This document shows positions 9,341 through 63,801 of a DNA stretch of 64,000 nucleotides, one piece after another. The translations under genes were made by a program, and so were the position numbers. Positions within the stretch are counted from its first letter, which is position 1. Each line of letters opens with the position of its first letter. The notes under the pieces are model-generated. The model saw only the letters and a program-made list of their open reading frames with translations. It was not told where the DNA came from and ran no database searches. The DNA is from Eledone cirrhosa (Eukaryota), in assembly GCA_964016885.1 (NCBI GenBank), contig OZ024750.1, positions 32,054,001 through 32,118,000 of the forward strand. The letters run 5' to 3'.

Positions 9341-9772
9341 AATATGTATGCATATATGTATGTATATATGTGTGTGTGTATGTATACATGTGTCTATGTA
9401 TGTATATGTACATACTGATATTAGCGGCGTCTCAAAACATAGTAATTTTAGTTTGCCGGGAGGTAAGTCAAGATCCACTACAAATTAACTCCCCAAATTA
9501 TTCACAGTTTGTGTTTTAGTACTGCCGTTATATATATTATTATTATTATTATTATTATTGAATGCCATGGTTGACGGAGGCTCGGCTCTGTAAGGTATAG
9601 TAATTTTTAACCGTTAAAACAATTGTAAATTGTTTAAAACTTGAACCAAATTGTTGATAAAGACACCCTCCTCCTCGTGAGAGGGGTCTTTCTGTCCGTT
9701 ATTTGGCCCTTCGGGGTTAAATAACCAGTTATTGGGGTTTTGTACCCAAAATTTCATTTTAAACAAAAAAAC

Positions 9773-11866
9773 ATGGCTACCAAAAAGAAATTTCATACGT
9801 CACTCCCACTCATTCCGTCTTCTTCTTCCTCAATCATCACTACAGCAGAGAGAAGATTGTCTCTCTCCCTCCCTTCTTTAAATGTGTCTCTCTCCCTCCC
9901 TTCTCTTTCGCAAGCGACGAAAGAAAAGAAAAGTCTCGTGCAAAGCGTGCAAGGTTTCTCCACGACGACGACGACAGCGACGAAACAGGTGTGCAGGAAA
10001 TACGAAAACCCAGTTCATTCGTCTGACGTCAGGAATAATAGCAGTAGCAGCCGTAATAACAACAGCAACAGTGACAATGAAAACAACAGTAGCAGCCGCA
10101 ACAGCATCACCAGCAGCATAAACAACAACAGCATTAGCAGCAGCAACACCAACAACAACCACAGCAACAGCGGCGGAGGCAGTAGTCGTAGTACCTGCAG
10201 CAACAAAAGTACCAGCAGCTCTGACGACAACAACAACAGCAGAGAAAAACCAATCTCATTTGCAGGTATTGCGAAAAACTTGGAAACAATCCTCATAACA
10301 AATGAGGAATTAGAGGAAGCGAAGAAGATGGTGACAAAGAACGGACACCGAGCAATCTGCAAGGCAGCGAAAAATTTTTTCGAAACCCAAGAGCACTGTA
10401 CGGTCACGTACCGTACAGTAAGTACAAAATCCCGTAGGGTGGAAAGAGCCACAGAGGCCCAAATACAAAAAGCCTTGGGGTCTGTGTGGCAGAGGAAAAC
10501 GCACATCACCCGAGGCAAAAAATACGCCACCGTAGACGTACTTTTTGCCACACCCCAGGAGGCAAAGGCCCAATCAGTAGTGACCCTAAGGAGCGAGGAA
10601 ATGGTGTTGGTGCCCTCCTACTGCGGGCAAAAAATTGTGAGGGTCAAACTGACCCACGTCCCCCCCGGAATGACCCCTTCTTGGCTGGCCGCGTCTGTCC
10701 TCGTCGGAATCGAGGACAAAACAACTGTACTGCAAGTACAGAAAAAAGTAAGAGAAGATTGGGTCGGCTCCTCCATTGAGATGCTAATCCAAACCAACCA
10801 GGAGTGCATCGAAGCTATCCCGGATGTGATAGACTTCGATAACGGCACTCAACTGCCCATAAGTGTTGAGGGCAAACGCCCGAAATGCTTTCGCTGTGGA
10901 TCGAAGACTCACCTCAGGGCCTTCTGCAACGAGAAGACCCTGAGAAAGGAGAAAACCCCCCTCCTTCCGAATCCGGCTCCACGGCTACCAGCAACAGGAC
11001 AAGCGGCAACCAGGAACGATAGGTCCGTGGCACCCATACCCACTCCACGGAAATCAAAGACAGCAGCAGCAGTGGAAATATTAACAACAACAACAGCAAT
11101 ACCAAATGCAGCTGCAACAGAGACTCCAGTGCAAACATCACCAACAACAACAAGTGAAAGAGTGGAGCTGGTACCCCTCCCCGACCTTACAGAATCAGAC
11201 ATGGAGTGTGAGGTGGGAGAGGGATGGCAAAAGGTCGCAAGAAGGCACAAACGCAGAAGCAGCGCATCGTCGCCTTTGAAAAGGGAGGAAAGAAATGAGA
11301 AAAGGGTAAAGTCTACTGCAAAGAGACCCACAGCAGCAACACCACCAACACCATCACCACCCACACCAGCACCACCATCACCACCGGCGACAACCCCACC
11401 GCCAACAACACCTTCAACACCACCACCACAAGCACCAACATCGCAAACACAACAACAAAACACACACACCCAGCAACAACGACAAGAAAATAGCAGAACC
11501 ACACCCCACCCCCAGAAAAACAAATGCACGGCAATAAACACACACAACAAGAAACTAATGACTTACATAATTGAACACACAGACATTTCACAACAGGACT
11601 ACATAATACCAGCACCAATCAAAACGCCAACTAACATAAGACTGCTAAAAATAGCACAGAAACAATACACAAACATTAAAACGAAATTCCCCAACGCTGT
11701 TGGTGATTTCAGGGACCTAGGAGGAACCATTAATCGAAGAGTATATTCAGACATTCTCTTAGAAGAGCCGACGACCAGCCGAAGGGACGATTCAACGGTC
11801 CCTTCACCAGACGATCAAGTGAAAAGGGATGTAAAAACCATCCCTCCTCTACCAAAAGTACGGTAA
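9773..11866 (+). CDS. LINE ORF1p, gag-like nucleic-acid-binding protein with CCHC zinc knuckle
   Basis: First in-frame ATG at 9773; CFRCGSKTHLRAFC (Cx2Cx4Hx4C); Ser/Asn-rich N-terminus and Pro/Thr-rich tail; shares ISFA, PSYxGxK and SVEGxRP with ORF1 at 58192. Confidence 0.9.
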   Translation: MATKKKFHTSLPLIPSSSSSIITTAERRLSLSLPSLNVSLSLPSLSQATKEKKSLVQSVQGFSTTTTTATKQVCRKYENPVHSSDVRNNSSSSRNNNSNSDNENNSSSRNSITSSINNNSISSSNTNNNHSNSGGGSSRSTCSNKSTSSSDDNNNSREKPISFAGIAKNLETILITNEELEEAKKMVTKNGHRAICKAAKNFFETQEHCTVTYRTVSTKSRRVERATEAQIQKALGSVWQRKTHITRGKKYATVDVLFATPQEAKAQSVVTLRSEEMVLVPSYCGQKIVRVKLTHVPPGMTPSWLAASVLVGIEDKTTVLQVQKKVREDWVGSSIEMLIQTNQECIEAIPDVIDFDNGTQLPISVEGKRPKCFRCGSKTHLRAFCNEKTLRKEKTPLLPNPAPRLPATGQAATRNDRSVAPIPTPRKSKTAAAVEILTTTTAIPNAAATETPVQTSPTTTSERVELVPLPDLTESDMECEVGEGWQKVARRHKRRSSASSPLKREERNEKRVKSTAKRPTAATPPTPSPPTPAPPSPPATTPPPTTPSTPPPQAPTSQTQQQNTHTQQQRQENSRTTPHPQKNKCTAINTHNKKLMTYIIEHTDISQQDYIIPAPIKTPTNIRLLKIAQKQYTNIKTKFPNAVGDFRDLGGTINRRVYSDILLEEPTTSRRDDSTVPSPDDQVKRDVKTIPPLPKVR

Positions 11867-11901
11867 GTGGTCTTTCCCATCTTTTCCACTCTATTTTAAA
11901 C

Positions 11902-14900
11902 ATGACCTCACTCAGAATAGGCAGCATAAATGCGCGTGGCTTGGGGTCGTCATGGAAGCAGGGTCACCTGCTCAACGACCTCAGGTCACTAAACATAGAT
12001 GTAGTGGCCATCAGCGAGACCAGAATCTCCGAAGCACGGGCCTTCGCACCGATCTTCGGCGGCTACGATGTGTACGCATCTCCCAGCCGTCCTGGATCGG
12101 GTGGAGGAGTTGCTGTGCTTTTTCGGAGAGGTTTGGATCTCGCCATACGGGCCATCTTCCTGGACCCAGAGGGTAAGCTGGTGGTGCTGGACGTGACCAG
12201 CGGAGACGGGCAAGCTTTCAGGCTAGTGGCCGTCTATGCCCCGACAGGAGCAGGGCGGCCTGATTTCTTCCGGCGTCTGGAGACCTTTCTTGGAACGTCC
12301 CGCTCTTTAGTGTTAGTGGGCGACTGGAACGGGATCTTAGATGCACGCTGGGACTGTGTGGGATTAGCGGATAGGGGTGGAGGGTGCAAGAGCCTCACCA
12401 ACCTGCTCAGGCGTTTTGAACTGTCTGACAGGTACCGATTGGATTTCCCGAATGTGCCAATGTGGACTTGGACAAACCGCATAGGGTCATCCAGATCATA
12501 TCTAGATAGAGTATTTTGTAGGGAAATAGATAGGTCTAGCATAGGCTGTCCACAATTCAAGATAGTCAGCTACACGGACCACAAATTCGTGACCTGTGTG
12601 CTTGACTTAGATAGGCTTCATAGACGAGGACCCGGCTACTGGAAGCTAAACGCGTCCTTACCAGCGCGCAAGGCCTACAGAGACCGGATTAGCGAACTAG
12701 TTAAGCGGGCGTTGACGGGGGCCATCGTCAACAACAAGTGGTGGTTTGCTCTGAAAAGAGCGATTAGAATAGAATCGATTAGGTTTAGTAAGGCTTTAGC
12801 AATAGAGAAAAATAGAGCAGAGGGAGAACTAGTTAGAAAATTAGACGAGGCGCTTAGCAAAGGCATTGCGACCGACGTGCTTGCGGCGAAATTGGCCCTT
12901 GACCAATTCTTCAATGCAAAGCACGAAGGCTGCGTTGTCAGAGCTAGGGTGCGTGCTCTCAGACACGAGGGGACGAAAGCCGTTCAATGGGCCCGAGTGG
13001 CGGAGGCGCGTCGTGGCAACAAAGCCACGATCCGGTCTTTGGTGGACCACGACGGGCGCATGCTACTCGATCCCGGGCAAATGTGTGAAGCTTTTCAGCG
13101 ACACTTCGCTCAGCTGTTCGGGGGCAGCGGGGGGCCGGGTAGAGGGATGGACTTTAGTGTCTACCTCGACGGACTGCCGCGGCTCTCGGCCACTGAGGCG
13201 AGGTGTTGCGAAAAGCCGATAACAGCCGCTGAAATACGGGAGGCAATGACTGGCTGCACAAGGGGTAAATCGCCTGGTTTGGATGGTCTGCCCTATGAAC
13301 TTTACGTACAGATGCCAGACTTGTTCGGAGGCCTCTTGGCGGACGTCTACTGCAACTGGCAACAGAACGGGAGAATTCCCAGTTCTGTGAGCCGAGGAGC
13401 GGTGGCACTGCTGAGAAAGGATCCGAACAAGGGGGATAACATAGACAATTTCCGGCCCATAACTCTGCTAAACACAGAGTTTAAGATTTTGGCCAAGGTG
13501 CTAGCAAAGAGGTTGGCGCTTGTCGTTGGTGGTCTGGTGGGAGAGGCGCAGACATGCGCCATCCCCGACAGATCCATCCACGACAACCTCCACCTCATGC
13601 GATACATCGTAGAGAGGGTAGCTAGGGAACCTGGCACGGGTGGGTCCTTGATCAATTTAGATCAGTCGAAAGCTTTCGATAGGGTCGACCATCGTTACCT
13701 AGCGGCAGTCCTGAGGGCGGCTGGCTTTGGGCCCGTCTTCAGAGGCTGGATCGCTGCCATGCACAGCGACATCTGCTCTGTGGTGAGAGTGAACGGTCAC
13801 CTGTCGGAACCGTTCAACATCATGCGCTCGGTCCGCCAAGGATGTCCCCTCTCGTCCCTCTTGTACGTATTGACTCTCGAGCCATTACTGCACAAACTGG
13901 AGACGTTGAGGGGAGTCCCGCGCGAACTAGGATGCGGAAGATCCGTGTCAGCATATGCCGACGATGTCACCGTAGTGGTGTCGAACGCCAAACACATCGA
14001 GGCGATCGGCACTACACTAAGAGAATACGAAGCGGTGACAGGAGCAATGATCAACCAGGAAAAGTCAGTGGGCCTGCAGCTCGGCACCTGGAGAGGCAGG
14101 TCCATGCCGTCCAACAGCGTCGTCGGGCGCTGGACGGACGGACCGGTTAAATTGCTAGGGGTCTGGTTCGGTCCGGACCTCCAGACGGACAAAAACTGGG
14201 ACGAGGTGACGAGCAGGGTGGCTTCTCTCACCCAGAAATGGGCGGAGAGGAAGCTATCCCTGAAAGGTCGAGCGGAGGTGGCTAACGCGTACATCGCGTC
14301 TGTCATCTGCTACCGCCTAACCGTCGTACCTTGTCCTAAGCCTCGCCTGACTGCGCTGGAGCGTTTGCTCTTTCGCTTTTTGTGGAAGGGACGTGCTCCG
14401 ATGGTCAGGCGGTCCATCTGTTGTCAACACCCGCTACGTGGAGGGCTGGGCATGCCGTGGCTGATGATGCGCAGGCACGCGCTCAGGCTACGACATCTCC
14501 ACCTCTTCCTCGACGGTGATCAGGTGTGGTCGCCGTTTGCTAGACGCGTTTTTCCCCAGCTCGTTTCCTTGACGGAGCTGCAGTCCTGGGTCAAGCGAAG
14601 ACCGAGAGGGAGCGCCTGGAGACTGGAATGTCTTCAGGCGCTCACAGCCCTCGACCAATTGGGCAATGTGATCGGTGGAAACTCCACCTCGGCGTTCTAT
14701 AGAGGATTAGTGGAGGGGAAGAGCGACGACGTACTTGGGGAAACTCTAGGCGTCGACGAAAATCAACTAGCCAATCTCTTCGGAAGAACTTTCGGGCCAG
14801 GGCCTATGGACAACTTCCAGAAATCTCTGGCCTGGCAGTGCTACCGAGGAGCCTTGCCAGTTCGGGATAAACTCTACAGGCATGGAGGTGCCGTCAGCCG

Positions 14901-15321
14901 GGCATGTCCGAGATGCGCGCAGGGCGACGAAACCGTCCTGCACGCACTCGTCCAGTGTCCGAAAATTGCTGACTTGTGGGTTTATGTCGAACACCTGCTG
15001 TCGCGTTTAGGACGGATCCAGCTATCATCTGAGTCTATCGTGAGGATTGCCCCGCCCTCCTCCTTTAGCCGGGAAGGGCAGGCAGTTTTTATCTGTCTGG
15101 TGGCCATGGCGAAAGAGATAGTATGGTGGACACGTTTGAAAGGGCTGAAGACGAGCACTTACCTCTTCGGTGATGCTCTGATTGACTTTTTCAAATTTCA
15201 TTTGAAAAGGAAAATCAGAGTAGAGAAGGAAGTCCTCTCTTCCCAGCATTTTGTTGAAAGATGGGTGAGAGAAGCAAGAATGGCCCGAGTGAATGGGCCG
15301 ACTCTGAGTATATATCTGTAA
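11902..15321 (+). CDS. LINE ORF2p: APE endonuclease, reverse transcriptase and C-terminal zinc finger (1139 aa)
   Basis: Endonuclease motifs SINARGL, ISETR, VYAP, GDWN, YLDR, TDH; RT motifs KSPGLDG, FRPITLLN, LDQSKAFDRV, RQGCPLS, YADD; C-terminal CPRC...ETVLHALVQC. Confidence 0.97.
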   Translation: MTSLRIGSINARGLGSSWKQGHLLNDLRSLNIDVVAISETRISEARAFAPIFGGYDVYASPSRPGSGGGVAVLFRRGLDLAIRAIFLDPEGKLVVLDVTSGDGQAFRLVAVYAPTGAGRPDFFRRLETFLGTSRSLVLVGDWNGILDARWDCVGLADRGGGCKSLTNLLRRFELSDRYRLDFPNVPMWTWTNRIGSSRSYLDRVFCREIDRSSIGCPQFKIVSYTDHKFVTCVLDLDRLHRRGPGYWKLNASLPARKAYRDRISELVKRALTGAIVNNKWWFALKRAIRIESIRFSKALAIEKNRAEGELVRKLDEALSKGIATDVLAAKLALDQFFNAKHEGCVVRARVRALRHEGTKAVQWARVAEARRGNKATIRSLVDHDGRMLLDPGQMCEAFQRHFAQLFGGSGGPGRGMDFSVYLDGLPRLSATEARCCEKPITAAEIREAMTGCTRGKSPGLDGLPYELYVQMPDLFGGLLADVYCNWQQNGRIPSSVSRGAVALLRKDPNKGDNIDNFRPITLLNTEFKILAKVLAKRLALVVGGLVGEAQTCAIPDRSIHDNLHLMRYIVERVAREPGTGGSLINLDQSKAFDRVDHRYLAAVLRAAGFGPVFRGWIAAMHSDICSVVRVNGHLSEPFNIMRSVRQGCPLSSLLYVLTLEPLLHKLETLRGVPRELGCGRSVSAYADDVTVVVSNAKHIEAIGTTLREYEAVTGAMINQEKSVGLQLGTWRGRSMPSNSVVGRWTDGPVKLLGVWFGPDLQTDKNWDEVTSRVASLTQKWAERKLSLKGRAEVANAYIASVICYRLTVVPCPKPRLTALERLLFRFLWKGRAPMVRRSICCQHPLRGGLGMPWLMMRRHALRLRHLHLFLDGDQVWSPFARRVFPQLVSLTELQSWVKRRPRGSAWRLECLQALTALDQLGNVIGGNSTSAFYRGLVEGKSDDVLGETLGVDENQLANLFGRTFGPGPMDNFQKSLAWQCYRGALPVRDKLYRHGGAVSRACPRCAQGDETVLHALVQCPKIADLWVYVEHLLSRLGRIQLSSESIVRIAPPSSFSREGQAVFICLVAMAKEIVWWTRLKGLKTSTYLFGDALIDFFKFHLKRKIRVEKEVLSSQHFVERWVREARMARVNGPTLSIYL

Positions 15322-15582
15322 ACTAAAGGTGGAAAACTGGGAGAGGGCACTTGCCTTGGTGGTCAGGGTCATTGTGGCTTTTTACTGGGCTTTCTCCACA
15401 AATGTCCCTCCGAAGTCTCCCCCCCTATTGGGGAATTTTTCATTGTTATTTTCATTGTTATTTTTGTTACATCCTCTGTTTTTGTTTTTTTACACGCAGA
15501 AATGCCCATTTGTACCGTCCTGCATTGTCCTGCACTGTCCTTAATGTCTACTTTATGTAAACCCTTGTGGTTAATAAAGAAA

Positions 15583-15639
<57 letters not shown>

Positions 15640-15640
<1 letters not shown>

Positions 15641-16709
15641 AGTTACATTTATCTTGCTTTATGTTCATATGAGTTATCACCAAGTCACAACCAGTGACCT
15701 CAATAGACAACAAGGTCCGCCATGTTCAAGAAAGAACATACATACACACACATGCATCTTTAGGTGTTTAGACTTGTGAAGTACTTATATTGACAGAATC
15801 TTCCTTAGTATATGGGCAGTTCCCATTAGTACTATCTTTTGTATTTCTCCTATACGCGGGTCTCCTGGGATTTGCGATAAGTAATCATTAGACCCCTTAG
15901 GTATCATTCCTAGAGCGCTTACAACCACTGGTATTCTTTTAGTTCTCAATTTCCACATTTCTCCAATTTCTATCTCCAGGTCCTTACACTTACTCAATTT
16001 TTCAAATGTTTTTATAGATAAATTCTTGTCTATTGGAACGGACATATCAATTAGCAGGCATACCCTCTTTTTAAAGTCCTTCAGTATTATATCAGGTCTT
16101 GATTGAGATGTGATCTTTTTCAAGTATGGGAGGTGGTTGATGCTCCCACCAATTCTTTTGATGGGGCAGGTCAAAATGGTTTACACATTATCCAATGTAT
16201 GTATTGTGTAGCTCTGTCATGCATGTTTAGGTATTCGGTTGGAGCTATAGGACTGCACATTGAAATTATATGATCAATGGTGTCTGGTTATTTTTTTACA
16301 TACACGGTATAATGGGTTGCATCCAATTTTTATTATGTTGGCTTGGTAATCTTTTGTTGGCTGATCTTGTGCTAATATAATCAGTCCTTCAGTCTCCGAT
16401 TTCAGTCCAGAGGATGCCAACCACTGATGGGTTAAAGTTTTGTCAACATCAGGGATGTTAGCTCTTTCTGGCTATTTTCCATACAGAGGCATTTCTTGCC
16501 ATTTCTTAGCCAGTTTCTGTAGCAGTTCTTTCTTTGCAGTTACTTTTACCTGCTTTGCTTTTTCTGTGTTTTCCATATCAGCAGTAAATGGGACTTCTGA
16601 AATTTGTTGTCCATTACTGTATCTTTGTGCATCTTTTGTAATGGAGTATGATCTTTTGATGCTTTCGTGTTTCAAAACGAATTTGATCATCCAGTCATGT
16701 GATTCCCTT
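15640..16709 (-). mobile_element. 5'-truncated, decayed R4/Dong-clade non-LTR retrotransposon with (TAA)n tail
   Basis: Minus strand gives HQWLASSGLKSETEGLIILAQDQ, TIDHIISMC...EYLNMHD (zinc knuckle region) and RPDIILKDFKKRVCLLIDMSVP...EKLSK...IPVVVSALG...QKIVLMGTAHILRKILS* (PD-(D/E)xK endonuclease); stop at 15785, then about 145 nt UTR and (TAA)n. Confidence 0.8.
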
Positions 16710-41964: not shown

Positions 41965-42769
41965 ATGATGATGATGGAATATACTCCAAATCTTCCACGG
42001 AGATTTTGCCCTGTTATTCTTCAACACAACTCACAAAACGATATTTCGTTTGCCAGTTCAAAACTTCCTTCATCACTACAAATACACCCGTATTTCAATA
42101 CTTCTCGAAATGGAAATATTTTTAATGAACATATATTTCGAGTTCCGTTACAGACAGAGGTTTTTAATTCTTACCCTGTGATATCTAAACGGTATGAATG
42201 TAGCAATTACAGTGAAATGGATGTACCCTTTTACAGACCAAGCATGCATCAAACATGGGAAAAGTTTCGAAGTAACAGAGATCAATCCTCTCAGAATTAT
42301 CCGAATTTAGGGGCTCGTAGTAACTTCAATGACATAACATCTCACGAATATGTACATAATAATAATGAAGACATAAATTGTTTCTATCCAAGGCGCCATT
42401 TAACGTCTTCGACAACAACCTTTGTTAAGCCCATGTGTCAAGGAATATATTCGCGTAACGCGTATGATAATGAGAAAACAAACAAAAGTCAACAAATCAA
42501 TATTCATTCAAAACATTCGGATGATAATCAACATCAAATAAAATCGATATCTAAACTTCCCCTAGCCATCGATATGCTCAGACGTTCCGGAAGGTTCCTT
42601 GAGAAGATGAATCTGTATGTAAATCAAATTGACAAGCCTACACTTGAAAAGAATTCCGACGTGGAAAGGAGTGGTAAACAACTCCAGGGAAGGATAAATA
42701 AATGTCCCTATTGCAATAAATTCAAATCAAGTCCAGCACAACTAAAGATTCATTTACGAATTCACACAG
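41965..42769 (+). CDS. Exon of host C2H2 zinc-finger protein gene (partial)
   Basis: About 270-codon non-repetitive ORF in AT-rich DNA ending CPYCNKFKSSPAQLKIHLRIHT-G; CAG|GTTTGT donor at 42770 splits the Gly codon of the TGEKP linker. Start uncertain (ATG run from 41965 or an upstream acceptor). Confidence 0.8.
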
Positions 42770-43429
42770 GTTTGTAGCTTTTTATATTACAATTTCTTCT
42801 ACATTACATCATTAGTACCAAGCAATCTACAATGTAGTTTTCTTAAATCGTATTGATAAACAATATTTCTAATTTATTGAATTTTATTTATTCCGTATAG
42901 TTCTCTTTCTATTTCTCCTCCTATCTCATATTCTATCATCCGATATGGAAATACCGCCAGAAGAATAATTAAGTCATATTTCTTACTACATCAAAATTTA
43001 AAATAATATATATCGTCATTGTTCTTCCGTATTATGTTTCCTTGTTGACATTTCGCCTCACATAATATACGTGTGCAATATAAATACATAAAGCAATCTA
43101 ACACAAATACAAACACAAACACAAACACAAACGTTTTCACACACAAACAATACAATATATTAATATATAATCTATACATAAATGAGATAATATGAATAAA
43201 TATCAAGTTATAGAAATATTATTTTGTAGTTTCTATATATGTTCTTCGATATGTATAGGTACAAATATTTGAAAATTGCTGAATGTGTGTGTCAATACGT
43301 GAAATGCGAGAGATGCCTGATGTCTGTTGACAGTATTTTTGTCTAGAAATGCCCCCAGAATATTAATAAAACCGGAGATTATTTCTCTACAGGTCTGTAT
43401 ACTTGATTGATATATTTCAGGAGTGGGTG

Positions 43430-57507: not shown

Positions 57508-58191
57508 GTGTAATAATAATAAATTTGAAGACTAAAATCCAAAGAGGGCTCGATAAGGTTAAATATATATATCAAATATATAAGAACCGTAGACCAAATA
57601 TTTATTAAAATAACAGATGTATGTGTGTGTGTGTATGTGTGTATGTGTGGATGTGCATTTGGTACAGCACAGTAATAAAGTATAATTATGAAAAGTAATA
57701 AGGACATTGTTTTCAACTTGGGCAAACAAAATATAATAAATGGTTGTTTATGATTTGATTTAAGCACTTTTGTCTTTCAGAAGACTTAGTTATTCCAATG
57801 GTTTCCTATGTCTGTGTGAAAATATACATCGGAAAACTCTGGCTGGACTATCCTTTGAATAACATCTAAATATATAAATCGATGCGTCTTATGGAAGACG
57901 AAAACACTATATTAAAATTGTAATCTTGGTATCTATCTATCTATCTATCTATCTATTTATCGTCTCAGCTGTCGTCTGTTCTACAGTGTGGATGTCATTC
58001 ACTTCGCACAGAAGTTTTGTTCAAATTTATTGAGGAAATTTTGTGAGTTCAAACTTAATTTTGATACAATTGTGTAGCTTGACCCTCCGTCTGAACTGTC
58101 AGGCGGTGGGTCAGCTCATCTTTACCCCTCCTAGAGGTGAAAAACCTGTTTTAAAAAATTTTGTGTAAAAACTTTCAATCGTCTAACAGAA

Positions 58192-60093
58192 ATGTTAAAC
58201 GCAGCGAACGAAAATAGTGGTGGGGGGACAGCGGTAAGAGTTGTAAGCTCGCACGCTTTAGTCCTCCCTTCCTTCCCAACTAACGTCATAGAGAAGGAAG
58301 GAAAAATGAAAATAAAAACGGACGAATCTGCGGAGAAAAAATTAAATGACGAAAACATAAATCTGAACTTGGATTCCAACAACGAAAAAAAAAAATTTGA
58401 AAAATTGCATGACAATACTAATAACACAAACAAAGACACAACAAACAAAAAAATAACAGTTGAAAATAACATCATATCAGAAAACAAAGCAGACGACAAT
58501 ATTTCATTTGCACAGAAAACAAAGAAATCTTTGACTTATATAGCGGAAAACATTTCAGATGTGGTACGAAGGATCACGGACGCAAAACAATACATAAGTG
58601 AAGGTGAGAATGGTATTTTATTGGTAAAAATGCCTCAAGAATTCACGAAAGACATTGAAAGCCGAACGGTCAAGTTTCGGACCATCAACAACAGTACAAA
58701 AAAACCTGAACAGCCTTCTCAAGCAGATATCAAAACAGTACTCACAGAAGTACTGAATGAAACAACTTTCATAAGAAAAGACAGACTGTATGGAAGCCTA
58801 GCAATTATCATGAAGAACGAATCGGCGGCAAAAAAATGTGCTTTGTCACCGATTCGTTCGAAAAATTTCACCTTTTATCCATCTTATATGGGAAAAAAAA
58901 CTCAACGCATATGGCTGGATGCAATGATGCCAGATGTGGACTACTGCTGGCTCATAGCTGGCTTCATCGATCCAGTGAATGACAACGTGATTTCCATTGG
59001 GAAAACCACAGGCAATGCGTTCAGTGGAACAGGTATAGAGCTGGTAGTACAAATGAAGCCTGAACGCATCGCCCAAATACCCGACAGAATCCTATTAGAG
59101 GACCACGGGTATATAAACATTAGCGTGGAGGGGAGAAGGCCGTCCTGCCATATCTGTGCAGGCAGAGGGCACCTGAAGGCCGCTTGTCCCCAACTCAACA
59201 AAAAGAAAACCCTGCTACAAACACCAGCTCCACCACCACCACCACAACAGATAAACAAACAACAAAACTCAGTCCCACCCAACCCGTCCCTCAGTAACAC
59301 CACAACACCACCACAACACAAACAGTCACAACACATTACCCCAAAACAAAATACAGGCCCACCCAACCTCTCACTCAATAAAACAACACAACCACCGCAG
59401 ACACAACACACAAGACAGTCTAACATAGTGACATCCATCTCCCCCACAAAGAAAACCAACACGGAAACATTACCAGCAAACATACCTCTTCCCTCCAACA
59501 CTGAAGATAACCCAACGAATTCGGAGGAAGAAACGGAGTCCTTCAGACAGATTAAAAGGAAAAAAAGAAAACATGTGCAAAACACACAAGGACAAACAAC
59601 CCCCACCCAAATCGCAACACAATCTAACAAAACAGAAAACACCCCTCCAGCAACAAACAAAACCAAACCTGCCCCTCCCCTCTTCGAAACACTCACACCA
59701 TCGGAAAAAAAGACATTACACTATACTTACATCAACAGAAACAATAATAAATTAAATGAACTCATATACAATAATCCTTCGGTACAAACCGAAGGTGTAA
59801 ACTTTGTTTCATCAGAAAACCACCCACATTTAAAACTAATAAAAATCCCAATGAACCTCTACCAAAAACTAAAAAAGGATTTTAAGGAGGACGTAGGACC
59901 ACCCTCTGTCAAACCCATAAACCGCGTCCTACTAAAAAGCTTTCCCCCTCCCCTTCCCCTCCCCAACACAACTCCAAACACCCCAACCCCACCACACACC
60001 GACGACCCCACACCACCACAAGACACCCCTTCACCCAACACCCCCGACCCCATGGAAGTCGTGCAACCCGAACCCCGGGAAGCGGAAAGGTAG
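58192..60093 (+). CDS. LINE ORF1p with CCHC zinc knuckle (633 aa)
   Basis: CHICAGRGHLKAAC; SVEGRRP and PSYMGKK align to copy A ORF1; Pro/Thr/Gln-rich tail. Confidence 0.88.
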   Translation: MLNAANENSGGGTAVRVVSSHALVLPSFPTNVIEKEGKMKIKTDESAEKKLNDENINLNLDSNNEKKKFEKLHDNTNNTNKDTTNKKITVENNIISENKADDNISFAQKTKKSLTYIAENISDVVRRITDAKQYISEGENGILLVKMPQEFTKDIESRTVKFRTINNSTKKPEQPSQADIKTVLTEVLNETTFIRKDRLYGSLAIIMKNESAAKKCALSPIRSKNFTFYPSYMGKKTQRIWLDAMMPDVDYCWLIAGFIDPVNDNVISIGKTTGNAFSGTGIELVVQMKPERIAQIPDRILLEDHGYINISVEGRRPSCHICAGRGHLKAACPQLNKKKTLLQTPAPPPPPQQINKQQNSVPPNPSLSNTTTPPQHKQSQHITPKQNTGPPNLSLNKTTQPPQTQHTRQSNIVTSISPTKKTNTETLPANIPLPSNTEDNPTNSEEETESFRQIKRKKRKHVQNTQGQTTPTQIATQSNKTENTPPATNKTKPAPPLFETLTPSEKKTLHYTYINRNNNKLNELIYNNPSVQTEGVNFVSSENHPHLKLIKIPMNLYQKLKKDFKEDVGPPSVKPINRVLLKSFPPPLPLPNTTPNTPTPPHTDDPTPPQDTPSPNTPDPMEVVQPEPREAER

Positions 60094-60126
60094 GTCTCTA
60101 CACTCTCCTTTGGCTCTGCCGCCCAC

Positions 60127-63100
60127 ATGGATGTGTTAAGAGTAGGATGTTTGAATGCACGTGGCCTGGGCTCAACTTGGAAGCAAGCAAAGCTTCTAAA
60201 TGACCTCAGGTCATGTAGTATAAATGTAATGGTTATCTGTGAGACTCGAATCAGCGTCATGCGGCAGCTGGCCCCCACCTTCGATGACTTTGAGGTGCAT
60301 GCATCTCTCTGTCAACCTGGAGGTGGGGGTGGGGTTGTCGTGCTGCTGCAAAAACACCTGGGTCTTGCCGTACAGGTTGTGCACTCGGACCCGGAGGGTC
60401 GTTTGTTGGTGCTAGACGTTGGCAGTAGTGAAAGTGCGGCCTTGAGACTGGTCGCCGTCTACTCCCCTTTCGGAGCTGAACGGCCCGACTTCTTCCAGCG
60501 TTTGGAGACTTTTCTGGGAACGTCGCGTTCCCTGCTTCTAGCGGGGGATTGGAATGACATCCTGGATGCACGTTGGGACTATGCAGGAGCATGTCCTAAT
60601 AGAGGGGGGTGTAACAGCCTCAAGGGGTTACTCGACCGTTTTAACTTGGTCGATAGATATCGACTAGATTTTCCAACTGTGCCTACCTGGACTTGGAGAA
60701 ACCACAGTGGTCAAGCTAGATCGTACTTAGATAGATTCTTAGTTAGAAGTAAGGATAGGGACATATTAAGCTGTCCAGAAATGCGAACGGTTGGCTACAC
60801 GGATCACAAATTAGTGACCTGCGTGGTCAATCTCGAGAAAACACATAGACAGGGTTCCGGTTACTGGAAACTTAATTTGTCTTTACCGGCAAAAGAGACT
60901 TACAGAAACCGGATTAGCAGATTAGTTAAGGAGAGGTTGACGGGTGCAATCGTCAACAACCGATGGTGGGCATCTCTCAAAAGAGAGATTAGAACAGAAT
61001 CAATAAGTTATAGCAAGATGTTAGCTGCCAATAGGAATAGAAACGAGAAAGAATTAACAGGTAAATTAGAAGAGGCAATCAAGAGCGAAGATGTGGCCAG
61101 AGTGCTGGCATCGAGGACGGCCTTGAACCAGTTTTTCGATGCAAAGCATGAAGGCTGCGTCATTCGAAGTAAAATACGTGCTCTAGGTAATGAGGGGGCC
61201 AAAGCCGTTGGATGGGCCCGCGTGACAGAAGCTAAAAGTGGAAATCGATCCACCATCCGGTCGTTGCAAGACGAAGATGGACGAGTGATCCGGGAGCCTA
61301 AGCAGATGTGCGAGGCCTTTCAAAAGCACTTTGCCCGATTGTTCGGGGGAGGCGAGGGTCCGGGCCGGGGCGTGGATTTCGGTCCATACCTCGACGGCCT
61401 GCCGCGTCTCTCGAACAAAGAGGCAGAGTCCTGCGAGGGACCAATCTCGGCTGATGAGATCGGAGATGCGCTAAGCCAATGCAGCAGACGCAAATCTCCA
61501 GGTCTCGATGGTATACCTTACGAACTTTATTTAGCAATGCCGGTCTTCTTCTCCGAACTCCTCGAAGCGGTCTACTGCAATTGGCAGCAGAACGGGAGAA
61601 TTCCTTGTTCTGTAGCCAAGGGCGTAGTCACGCTGGTGAGGAAGGACGAGAACAAGGGGGATAGTATAAATAATTTTCGGCCCATAACCCTGCTAAACAC
61701 AGAGTTAAAGATTTTGGCCAAGGTGTTAGCAAAGAGGTTGGCGCTTGTCGTGGGTGGCCTGGTGGGAGATGCGCAGACATGTGCTATCCCATCCAGGTCC
61801 ATTCACGATAACCTCCACCTCATGCGATACATCATAGAGAGGGTTGGCAACAAACCCGGCTCGGTGGGGCCCTGATCAACTTGGTTCAGTCTAAGGCCTT
61901 CGATAGGGTCGACCATGGTTACCTGGATGCGGTGCTAGCGGCGGCTGGGTTCGGTCCTGTTTTCAGAGGCTGGATCACTGCCCTACATAGCAACCACATC
62001 TGTTCTAGGATCAAGGTGAACGGCTACCTTTCGAAGCCGTTCGAAATCACACGATCCATTCGACAGGGGTGCCCTCTCTCCTCCCTTCTGTACGTATTGA
62101 CTCTCGAGCCTTTACTGAGGAAGTTGGAGTTGTTGCAGGGTATCCCCCTGGAACCAGGATTGAGCAAAGCGGTGTCGGCCTACGCCGATGACGTAACAGT
62201 AATGGTATCAACCGACTCGGAGATCGAGGCGATCGGTACCTTACTGGAGGAGTACGAAAGGTTGTCAGGAGCGAAACTGAACCGGGAAAAATCCATCGGG
62301 CTGCAACTCGGAACGTGGAGAGGCAAACCGATGCCTCCTGACGGTGTCGTCGGACACTGGACGGAGGGCCCGGTAAAGTTGCTTGGGGTCTGGTTTGGAC
62401 CGGACCTCCAGGTGGAAAAGAACTGGAACGAGGTTACGAACAAGGTGTTTGCACTAACCCAGAAATGGGCCAAGTGTAAGCTGTCCCTAAAAGGCCGGGC
62501 GGAGGTGGCGAACATTTACATAGCGTCCGTCACTTACTACCGCCTGACTGTCGTGCCTTGCCCTAAGGAAACACTCACCACCATGGAACGCATGCTCTTC
62601 CAATTTCTTTGGAAGAAGCGTCCTCCTATGGTGAGAAGATCCATCTGCTGCCAACAACCTTCGAAAGGAGGGCTGGGGATGCCGTGGTTGATGATGCGTA
62701 GGCACGCATTAAGGCTACGGCACCTACAGGTATTCCTCACTGGTCAACCGGTGTGGGCTCCGTTCGTGAAACGAGCCTTTCCGAGACTCGTCTCACTCAC
62801 CGAGCTACGGTCCTGGGTCAAGCAAAGATCCGGAAAACTGGGAGACTGGCACACTGAGTGTGCTCAGGCGCTCAGGGCTCTCTGGCAAGCGGGCCGGGCC
62901 ATCGGTGGAGAATCCACCTCATCATTCTATAGAGGGCTGGTGGCTAGCAGGGGCGATGACACCCTTGGAGAGTCGCTGGACATGGAAGAAGACGAACTGG
63001 CCAGCCTGTTCGGTAGGACTTTCGGCCCAGGACCAATGGACAACTTCCAGAAGTCACTGGCCTGGCAGTGCTACCGAGGGGCTCTACCCGTTCGAGAGAG

Positions 63101-63537
63101 GCTCTACAGACACGGGCGCCCGGGCAGGGATCCCTCAAAAAAGATTTGCCCTAGATGCGTGCGTCACGAAGAAACCGTAGCGCACGCATTGGTGCAATGT
63201 CCGGGCGTGGCTGATCTGTGGGGCTGCGCCGATTAAATTGACCGCCGAGTCCGTGGTGACAATCAAACCGCCTCCCCTCTTCACAAAGGAAGCAAAGGCG
63301 GTTTTTCTGTGCGTAATAGCCATGTTGAAAGAGGTTGTTTGGTGGACACGATCGAAAGGTCTGAGGTCAGGCAACTTCCTCTCTGGCCATAGTCTGGTCT
63401 ACTTCTTCCGATATCACTTCGGAAGAAGGATAAGAATGGAGAGAGAGGTGCTTGGCCACAGGCAGTTTTATGAAAGGTGGGTGATAGTGGCGAGAATGGC
63501 TCGTGTAAATGGGCCTTCTCTGTATACCATCCTGTAG
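60127..63537 (+). pseudogene. LINE ORF2 (APE-RT-zinc finger) broken by two frameshifts
   Basis: Colinear with 11902-15321; 1-nt deletion near 61861, about 26-nt deletion near 63231, and LDQSKAFD changed to LVQSKAFD. Confidence 0.92.
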
Positions 63538-63801
63538 GTAAAGAAGTAAAGGAGAGGGGAGCACCTTCTCCATATGCTCCCCGGGCAAAGGATTGCACAC
63601 TTTTTCGGGGGTGTGTGCAACCCCCATCACGTCCCCTCCCTTTTGAGGTTATTTTCGATTATTTTCATGTTACACCCTTTTTACTCGATTATATGTAAAC
63701 TCCCCCTTTGTATTTGTCCCTTCTTTTTATGCCTTTATGGTAAATAAAGAAATCTATCTATCTATTTATCGTCTGTGACCCTCCCTCCCTCTCTCTCTCG
63801 C

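Follow-up and report, generated by a model that had tools for sequence, protein, structure and literature searches.

Long interspersed nuclear elements (LINEs) are expected to lose introns at each replication cycle and to express their second open reading frame (ORF2) purely by translation. The closest described systems with a splice site after the structural gene are plant retrotransposons with long terminal repeats (LTRs). In plant Ty1/copia elements such as EVD, U1 bound at a conserved donor acts twice, in setting the splice and in preventing premature termination, and an EVD donor mutant terminates prematurely (PMC5580714). In BARE1 of barley a facultative intron of 104 nucleotides (nt) begins 2 nt past gag, its removal creating a stop three codons later and the spliced RNA being described as not replicated (PMC3735527). 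The present study concerns two LINEs of the L1 group, copies A and B, in a 64,000-nt stretch of the Eledone cirrhosa genome (contig OZ024750.1, positions 32,054,001 to 32,118,000; hereafter the window), in which a U2-type 5' splice donor overlies the ORF1 stop codon and opens a candidate micro-intron reaching into ORF2. At a probability of roughly 45%, we read this interval as a mostly retained micro-intron of ~50 bases in which selection may act on U1 binding at the donor of the full-length RNA and not on protein fusion.

The likeness to EVD lies in a U1-type donor at the boundary between structural and enzymatic genes and in an intron-retaining RNA that is the full-length form, although EVD is an LTR element with one polyprotein ORF, whose splicing is coupled to downstream termination and was studied experimentally, whereas the present LINEs are bicistronic and their ~50-nt interval is known from DNA. 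BARE1 shares a small facultative intron placed right after the structural gene, with a stop within a few codons of the splice. There, however, splicing concerns half of the polyadenylated RNA, whereas here the interval measures 48–59 nt, a start codon is removed with it and the stop arises only in phase-1 families; a message for the structural protein alone would result in silico in families C, D and F but not in A, A2 and B. Removal of the intron of the Ty3/gypsy element Ogre reportedly joins the frames of its ORFs. An intron between retrotransposon ORFs, as in Ogre (cited in PMC3735527), is a precedent for fusion of ORF1 to ORF2, but Ogre is again an LTR element and in the present families the frame across the interval is not conserved.

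Among LINEs, human L1 has conserved splice sites that are mostly evaded, rare spliced copies (spliced integrated retrotransposed elements, SpIREs) reinserting as dead ends (PMC5860796); those sites lie in the 5' untranslated region (UTR) and in ORF1, with spliced copies reaching ~2% of full-length ones, as against the ORF1/ORF2 junction and 1 copy in 6,172 here. Kibi and Koshi of the Tx1 clade resemble the present elements in having an L1-group ORF2 with APE endonuclease and in inserting into microsatellites, but their targets are (TC)n or (TTC)n (PMC4494074), those seen here being (ATT)n and (ATCT)n. No description of an intron or donor at a LINE ORF1/ORF2 junction was found by titles and the starts of abstracts in full-text searches, whose coverage did not extend to subscription journals, Repbase entries and supplements; searches aimed specifically at such a junction gave no papers, and neither "splic" nor "intron" occurs in the main text of two octopus repeat papers.

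The ORF1/ORF2 junction of copies A and B

The first-pass annotation of the window had described, in copy A, a donor CG/GTAAGT (the slash marks the exon end) holding the ORF1 stop codon TAA, a stretch without AG as far as 11914–11915 and a resulting intron of 53 nt, and all of these coordinates were reproduced (Table 1): the GT occupies 11863–11864, the TAA 11864–11866, and no AG occurs from donor position +6 up to 11914–11915. The two ORFs lie in different genomic frames and had been said to become joined in frame, and in-silico removal of the 53 nt does give a single frame of 1,832 amino acids. Copy B has the same layout, with a donor over the stop, a pyrimidine spacer and an in-frame AG in codon 5, and from these two copies alone the model of an ORF1–ORF2 fusion looked good.

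Table 1. Features of the two LINE copies and their junctions in the window
Feature	Position	Strand	Remarks
LINE copy A (L1 group, Tx1-like)	9560..15584	+	inserted between (ATT)n runs; 3' boundary approximate, with AATAAA at 15573 followed by (ATT)n
Copy A ORF1	9773..11866	+	697 amino acids; CCHC knuckle; features like ZCCHC3 RNA-binding domains (Atlas lead, scores 0.91–0.93)
AATAAA, A-rich 3' half of ORF1	11533..11538	+	~330 nt upstream of donor; candidate premature poly(A) signal; 67/75 family-A loci
U2-type 5' splice donor ACG/GTAAGT over ORF1 stop	11860..11868	+	phase 2 in family A
Candidate 53-nt micro-intron	11863..11915	+	holds ORF1 stop and ORF2 start codon; homologous interval precisely lost in family-F copy L353/L377
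AG-free spacer	11869..11901	+	76% pyrimidine
Copy A ORF2	11902..15321	+	1,139 amino acids; APE endonuclease, reverse transcriptase, zf-RVT
ORF2 ATG inside candidate intron	11902..11904	+	kept in all seven families
First AG (CAG, ORF2 codon 5, phase 2)	11914..11915	+	of the seven families, in frame only for A, A2 and B
Second AG (TAG, phase 1)	11919..11920	+	out of frame for A; equivalent AG in frame for C, D, F
LINE copy B, divergent family	57961..63752	+	(ATCT)n flanks; ORF2 interrupted; 3' end approximate
Copy B donor AAG/GTAGGT over ORF1 TAG	60087..60095	+	phase 2
Copy B candidate 51-nt micro-intron	60090..60140	+	ORF2 ATG at 60127; first AG at 60139–60140, codon 5

Conservation of the donor among families

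Searches of the host's own genome (3.0 Gb, microsatellite-rich) with divergent queries gave junctions for 210 of 212 sequences, falling into seven families or subfamilies (A 75, C 40, B 31, D 29, A2 24, E 6 and F 5), and 30 further loci were of the A, A2 and C types. All families form one clade in the tree, with three lineages, (A, A2, C), (D, E, F) and B, between which ORF2 is 59–75% identical and its fourfold sites have an identity of 0.44–0.57. The conservation of a donor at the stop, which the first-pass annotation had left to an alignment of families, was confirmed at the end of ORF1 in 7/7: all carry G/GTAAGT (GTAGGT in B) 37–40 nt upstream of the ORF2 AUG (36 or 41 in single copies), and the spacer, of near-constant length, is 73–81% pyrimidine throughout. 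Of 163 distinct junction contexts, 152 have the donor unaltered, and between lineages 6–7 of the 7 motif bases match, compared with 4–12 of 27 in the upstream flank and 5–12 of 24 in the spacer.

Judged by the longest open frame, the donor stands in phase 2 in A (68/75), A2 (20/24) and B (31/31), in phase 1 in C (35/40), D (28/29) and F (3/5) and in phase 0 in E (4/6), amounting to at least three phase changes on the tree by parsimony count, and ORF1 ends by family in R-stop, GK-stop or an EVSK... run-on. Since these endings differ, neither a single stop codon nor a single peptide can have given rise to the motif as a side effect, and every base of the motif seems to be without coding constraint in at least one family; since the phase has shifted at least three times, the splice product is not the conserved property. 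One locus (L253) combines an A-like ORF1 end with a C-like spacer and is in phase 1, the shift between it and family A being due to 43 extra bases that A has just before the donor.

Within each element of ~6 kb the junction donor is the best or equal-best one. Other sites with at least 7 of 8 donor bases number 1–3 per ~6.1-kb element, or about 0.001 per stretch of 4 nt, and by this count a donor at -37 to -40 in all seven families exceeds chance and is more than a stop-codon accident. Among distant L1-group loci from metagenomes (35 taken from 80, one left out as its match began at residue 161), 2 of 34, both of one family, have a 7/8-base site at most 70 nt upstream of ORF2, so that, as sampled, the junction donor is specific to the clade of families A–F and not a general trait of L1-group elements. 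These two metagenome contigs (L279 and L280, 30–32% identical) have GAC/GTAAGT directly before the ORF1 stop, 56 nt upstream of ORF2, a site that is possibly independent or due to chance. An older, eighth family in the host (L361, L381 and L382; e.g., G000:C1:149214885-149215030), covered over 145 nt, combines a T-rich spacer with a weaker donor-like AAAG/GTAAA located 53–55 nt upstream of the ORF2 AUG.

The interval has the GT...AG ends and the consensus donor of a U2-type intron, the animal donor consensus being agGTaagt (PMC13644364), and human introns of 37–65 nt are reported as real but rare (PMC4463651). The pyrimidine tract ends 11–14 nt before the AG, with purine-rich last bases in B, D, E and F; a YTNAY-like word, expected often in pyrimidine-rich DNA, was seen by eye in C, D, E and F at 9–14 nt upstream of the AUG, with no clear instance in A, A2 and B. 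In contigs of four sequencing runs out of six, all of unknown kind, the junction is spanned unspliced by those of X1 and X6, and none of the 15 contig joints shown, out of 287, falls at the ORF1/ORF2 junction, neither result being evidence either way. A hairpin hiding the donor was rejected, beating shuffled spacers only in C (0/200 shuffles as strong) and not in the other six families. Distal acceptors that would give an ORF1-only message were likewise discarded: no strong acceptor stands at a shared position in the seven families, a good-looking one in the 3'UTR of A and A2 has no counterpart in B, C, D or F, and a junction to a distal AG occurs in none of the 69 copies with donor-side variants described below.

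Reading frame of the predicted splice

The proposal that splicing serves to fuse ORF1 to ORF2 was not supported by the comparison of families. Joined at the first AG, three of the seven families (A, A2 and B) stay in frame; C, D and F do not, nor does E at its codon-5 AG. In C, D and F this first, codon-5 AG ends ORF1 one codon later (GK-stop becoming E-stop) with loss of the ORF2 AUG; D has an additional, earlier AG at 36 nt, and in E the first AG is that of the ORF1 stop itself, at 30 nt, with no in-frame AG between 31 and 95 nt. An in-frame TAG follows 4–5 nt past the first AG in C, D and F (53–59 nt), and the first YAG at 40 nt or more is in frame in 4/7 families by tally.

The conserved ORF2 start, L/I-R-[IV]-G, gives AGs in phase 2 and phase 1, at most 5 nt apart, in every family. 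Because this peptide always supplies them, every donor in phase 1 or 2 will find an AG in frame at 50–59 nt, and on these grounds the in-frame property of copy A is not beyond chance expectation. A and C, and likewise B and F, have the same acceptor sequence yet differ in donor phase, so in-frame fusion is not the conserved property. Nor is the junction phase conserved: donors occur in phases 2, 1 and 0, and related families give out-of-frame junctions as often as expected by chance, an outcome that the first-pass annotation had listed as counting against its proposal. Fusion is thus poorly supported, and the frame of the splice product is likely incidental.

Genomic copies lacking the interval

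Copies were counted with exact patterns in which the ORF1 end is followed by GT and compared with the same patterns having a base other than T at +2. GT-bearing copies, counted by pattern only, numbered 1,643 in A, 2,406 in A2, 607 in B, 629 in C and 818 in D and F together (6,103 in all); those with another base at +2 numbered 8, 38, 0, 12 and 11, respectively, and all 69 were read. The interval is retained in all but 1 of the 6,172 copies so screened, a figure obtained with patterns that miss mutated exon ends and copies with a base other than G and then T after the exon end, and with tandem copies that are not all independent; for family E the screen covered the acceptor side alone.

The exception, a family-F copy (L353/L377, G000:C3:46207653, + strand) of which 711 nt around the junction were read, has a deletion running exactly from the GT through the first AG. 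The sequence on its left reaches as far as the donor and that on its right resumes 14 nt past the AUG position; both sides are 88–92% identical to D/F references, and the ORF1 of this copy reads ...SPEE-stop, out of frame with ORF2. Apart from this copy and one further deletion (L421, see below), the donor-side variants are point changes or small indels, and patterns from the acceptor side (26 matches, namely 5, 13, 0, 8 and 0, all read) returned the same copy as the sole precise loss. None of 92 distinct background deletions of at least 20 nt in 902,720 aligned bases is GT–AG compatible, and at these rates chance would produce 0.032 precise losses among 6,172 copies with a length bin chosen post hoc, or ~0.1 if three acceptors are allowed. 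This single loss is suggestive, though not proof, of an interval that can be spliced, and the micro-intron is probably excisable. Another deletion (L372, G000:C28:29392276-29392420) runs from a cryptic donor-like site in mid-ORF1 (about 11300–11312 of the window) to the first ORF2 AG with one extra G; it is ambiguous between splicing and microhomology and was not counted.

Intronless single-ORF copies, to which the fusion proposal had pointed, were found neither among the 4,702 copies of A, A2 and B, none of which has a fused junction (upper 95% bound 0.06%; a rate of 2% would give 94), nor among the acceptor-side matches, and the only intronless copy is out of frame. A 1,851-amino-acid ORF1–ORF2 open frame (L161) was made by an upstream deletion and still contains the intron, and a frame of 1,609 amino acids (L248) has an intact junction; among 150 matches to the ORF1 end, none lies in a frame of more than 730 amino acids. 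No fused ORF1–ORF2 protein was present among 422 longer database candidates, which is a weak test, and 10 protein database matches considered as fusions were instead ORF2-only, partial or a host gene model. Viral contigs gave 0 relatives among 90 pattern matches.

Possible selection on donor recognition and its alternatives

The donor, spacer, AUG and retention are common to all families while the splice product varies, so that the simplest account would be selection on donor recognition itself. According to this account, the U1 small nuclear ribonucleoprotein would bind the junction donor and, by analogy with EVD, would keep the full-length bicistronic RNA from being cleaved and polyadenylated too early at AATAAA hexamers within the 3' half of ORF1, which is rich in A. 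Translation of ORF2 would start at its own AUG on RNA that retains the intron, with reinitiation as the probable mode, and occasional excision would remove that AUG and leave an RNA that is a dead end. Whether this RNA encodes a fusion (A, A2 and B) or ORF1 alone (C, D and F) would be incidental. An AATAAA stands at -350 to -380 from the AUG in 67/75 loci of A, 31/31 of B, 27/29 of D, 5/6 of E and 4/5 of F.

A number of points weigh against selection on donor recognition. The deletion in the intronless copy has a 3-nt AAG microhomology, microhomology of at least 3 nt is present in 32 of 87 singleton background deletions, and an unrelated, non-canonical deletion of ~320 nt (L421) also begins at the donor. 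Family C is without a common upstream AATAAA and A2 has one only at -530, in 12/24 loci; ORF1 being 33–42% A, such hexamers are expected often, and their position was noticed post hoc. The sites suppressed in EVD lie downstream of the donor and the LINE candidates upstream, and a role for U1 alone leaves both the fixed donor–AUG distance of 37–40 nt and the pyrimidine tract unexplained.

The alternative that survives best, though we consider it unlikely, is a throttle of the BARE1 kind, in which regulated splicing would delete the ORF2 AUG to give an ORF1-only message and so set the ORF1:ORF2 ratio, the unspliced RNA serving as template and as source of ORF2. The donor, pyrimidine tract and AG at 48–59 nt would make a complete small intron; the first-AG splice in C, D and F leaves ORF1 intact and drops the ORF2 start, as the intronless copy reads; and BARE1 provides the precedent of a facultative intron just past gag (PMC3735527). 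However, A, A2 and B, which make up 4,702 of the 6,172 screened copies and include young families, would give a fusion, or tails of 19–85 amino acids with the next AGs, spliced copies are far rarer than the ~2% of full-length human L1 (131/6,609; PMC5860796), and a bicistronic LINE already yields an excess of ORF1.

We hold it to be quite unlikely that the motif is a translation or protein-binding signal for termination–reinitiation which is donor-like by accident, with the intronless copy being a microhomology deletion. Such a signal would account for a purine motif followed by an unstructured pyrimidine spacer at a fixed 37–40 nt from a conserved AUG, and reinitiation over short spacers has been proposed for L1 and SART1 (PMC5972666); B, D, E and F, moreover, have a weak acceptor rich in purines, and microhomology deletions are common. 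Yet conservation falls on the bases of the animal donor consensus (PMC13644364), which stay fixed while the stop codon shifts, and the one deletion ends at an AG that had been predicted beforehand, for which the chance is about 0.03, or ~0.1 with three acceptors.

Very unlikely, in our estimation, is the fusion model in its remaining form, in which partial splicing would yield a Gag-Pol-like ORF1–ORF2 fusion carrying the reverse transcriptase and acting in trans on unspliced RNA, each family using a nearby in-frame AG. The first AG does lie in frame in A, A2 and B, the in-frame TAG of C, D and F is only 4–5 nt further, and the interval was seemingly excised at least once. With identical acceptors in different phases (A and C, B and F), no single spliceosome rule can frame all families (3/7 or 4/7), however, and E has no in-frame AG over the whole range from 31 to 95 nt. 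Fused junctions are also absent from 4,702 copies although L1 proteins show cis-preference (PMC5860796), none of the 150 ORF1-end matches lies in a frame beyond 730 amino acids, the fused frame of L161 keeps the intron, the ORF2 AUG is conserved, and the 422 longer candidates, weak as that test is, hold no fused protein. If true, fusion with a choice between tandem AGs would mean action in trans on intron-retaining RNA, with spliced RNA almost wholly kept from reverse transcription, and would break the cis-preference of the L1 group.

Inheritance of the motif by descent without selection, with help from stop codons and from codon strings of the kind GGT AAG T, is highly improbable. Although all families belong to one clade sampled in only three deep lineages and the same string also occurs within ORF2 of A2, C and E (at about +271, from E-G-K codons), the motif has persisted through a divergence that brought its flanks and the synonymous sites close to background, it has outlived three phase changes, and a comparable site is present in only 2/34 distant elements, both of one family.

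Other features of the window and of the families

The window contains two L1-group LINEs, both being non-LTR retrotransposons of that group by the APE, reverse transcriptase and C-terminal zinc domains of ORF2. The best structural homolog of ORF2 is L1 ORF2p (E 1e-52, vs 1e-21 for R2); a Pfam search of the copy A ORF1 gave no match, and Rfam gave 0 matches over 9400–15800. A clean microsatellite run is present at the 5' end of 18 of 22 full-length loci, with runs at 3' ends too, and the elements thereby show the preference for repeat targets that marks the Tx1 clade; no named Tx1 reference for a reverse transcriptase tree was among the matches of any search. Family A is young and high-copy, the best 150 matches scored all being 100% identical over 100 amino acids, and the best matches scored for family B are likewise 100% identical over 100 amino acids. 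Copies B and A are 65–67% identical in ORF2 and 29% in ORF1, which can be aligned over its core only. Sister clades are represented by P0001, the nearest outside relative (40% identical), and by P0015.

Many copies on G000:C1 (e.g., 55427398-55453338 and 423365215-423418066) lie in same-strand tandem arrays with a spacing of ~5.8–6.1 kb, which is consistent with repeated insertion of these LINEs into their own microsatellite flanks. The 3'UTRs of most families (15322–15584 of the window; loci L219–L238) have in common a palindrome resembling CCCCTATTGGGGAA, a tract rich in T and an AATAAA at the end, and 3'UTR types are mixed among neighbouring copies of different families. About 100 nt upstream of element A and outside it, a perfect donor GAG/GTAAGT (9459–9468) perhaps belongs to a host gene, and a 270-residue ORF at 41965–42777 with a C2H2 zinc-finger-like end, CPYC...HLRIHTG, is probably an exon of a host zinc-finger gene. 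A tectonic-3-like gene model of Octopus sinensis (P0005) includes ~60 residues of an A-family endonuclease, through exonisation or mis-prediction.

Implications

The persistence of a donor between ORF1 and ORF2, despite divergence that nears saturation and three changes of phase, would imply that nuclear RNA processing, in the sense of U1 binding and perhaps partial splicing, belongs to the life cycle of a LINE clade that is abundant and has recently been amplifying. It would also imply convergence with the copia elements of plants, and the thousands of near-identical copies, in families whose donors differ in phase, constitute a natural experiment.

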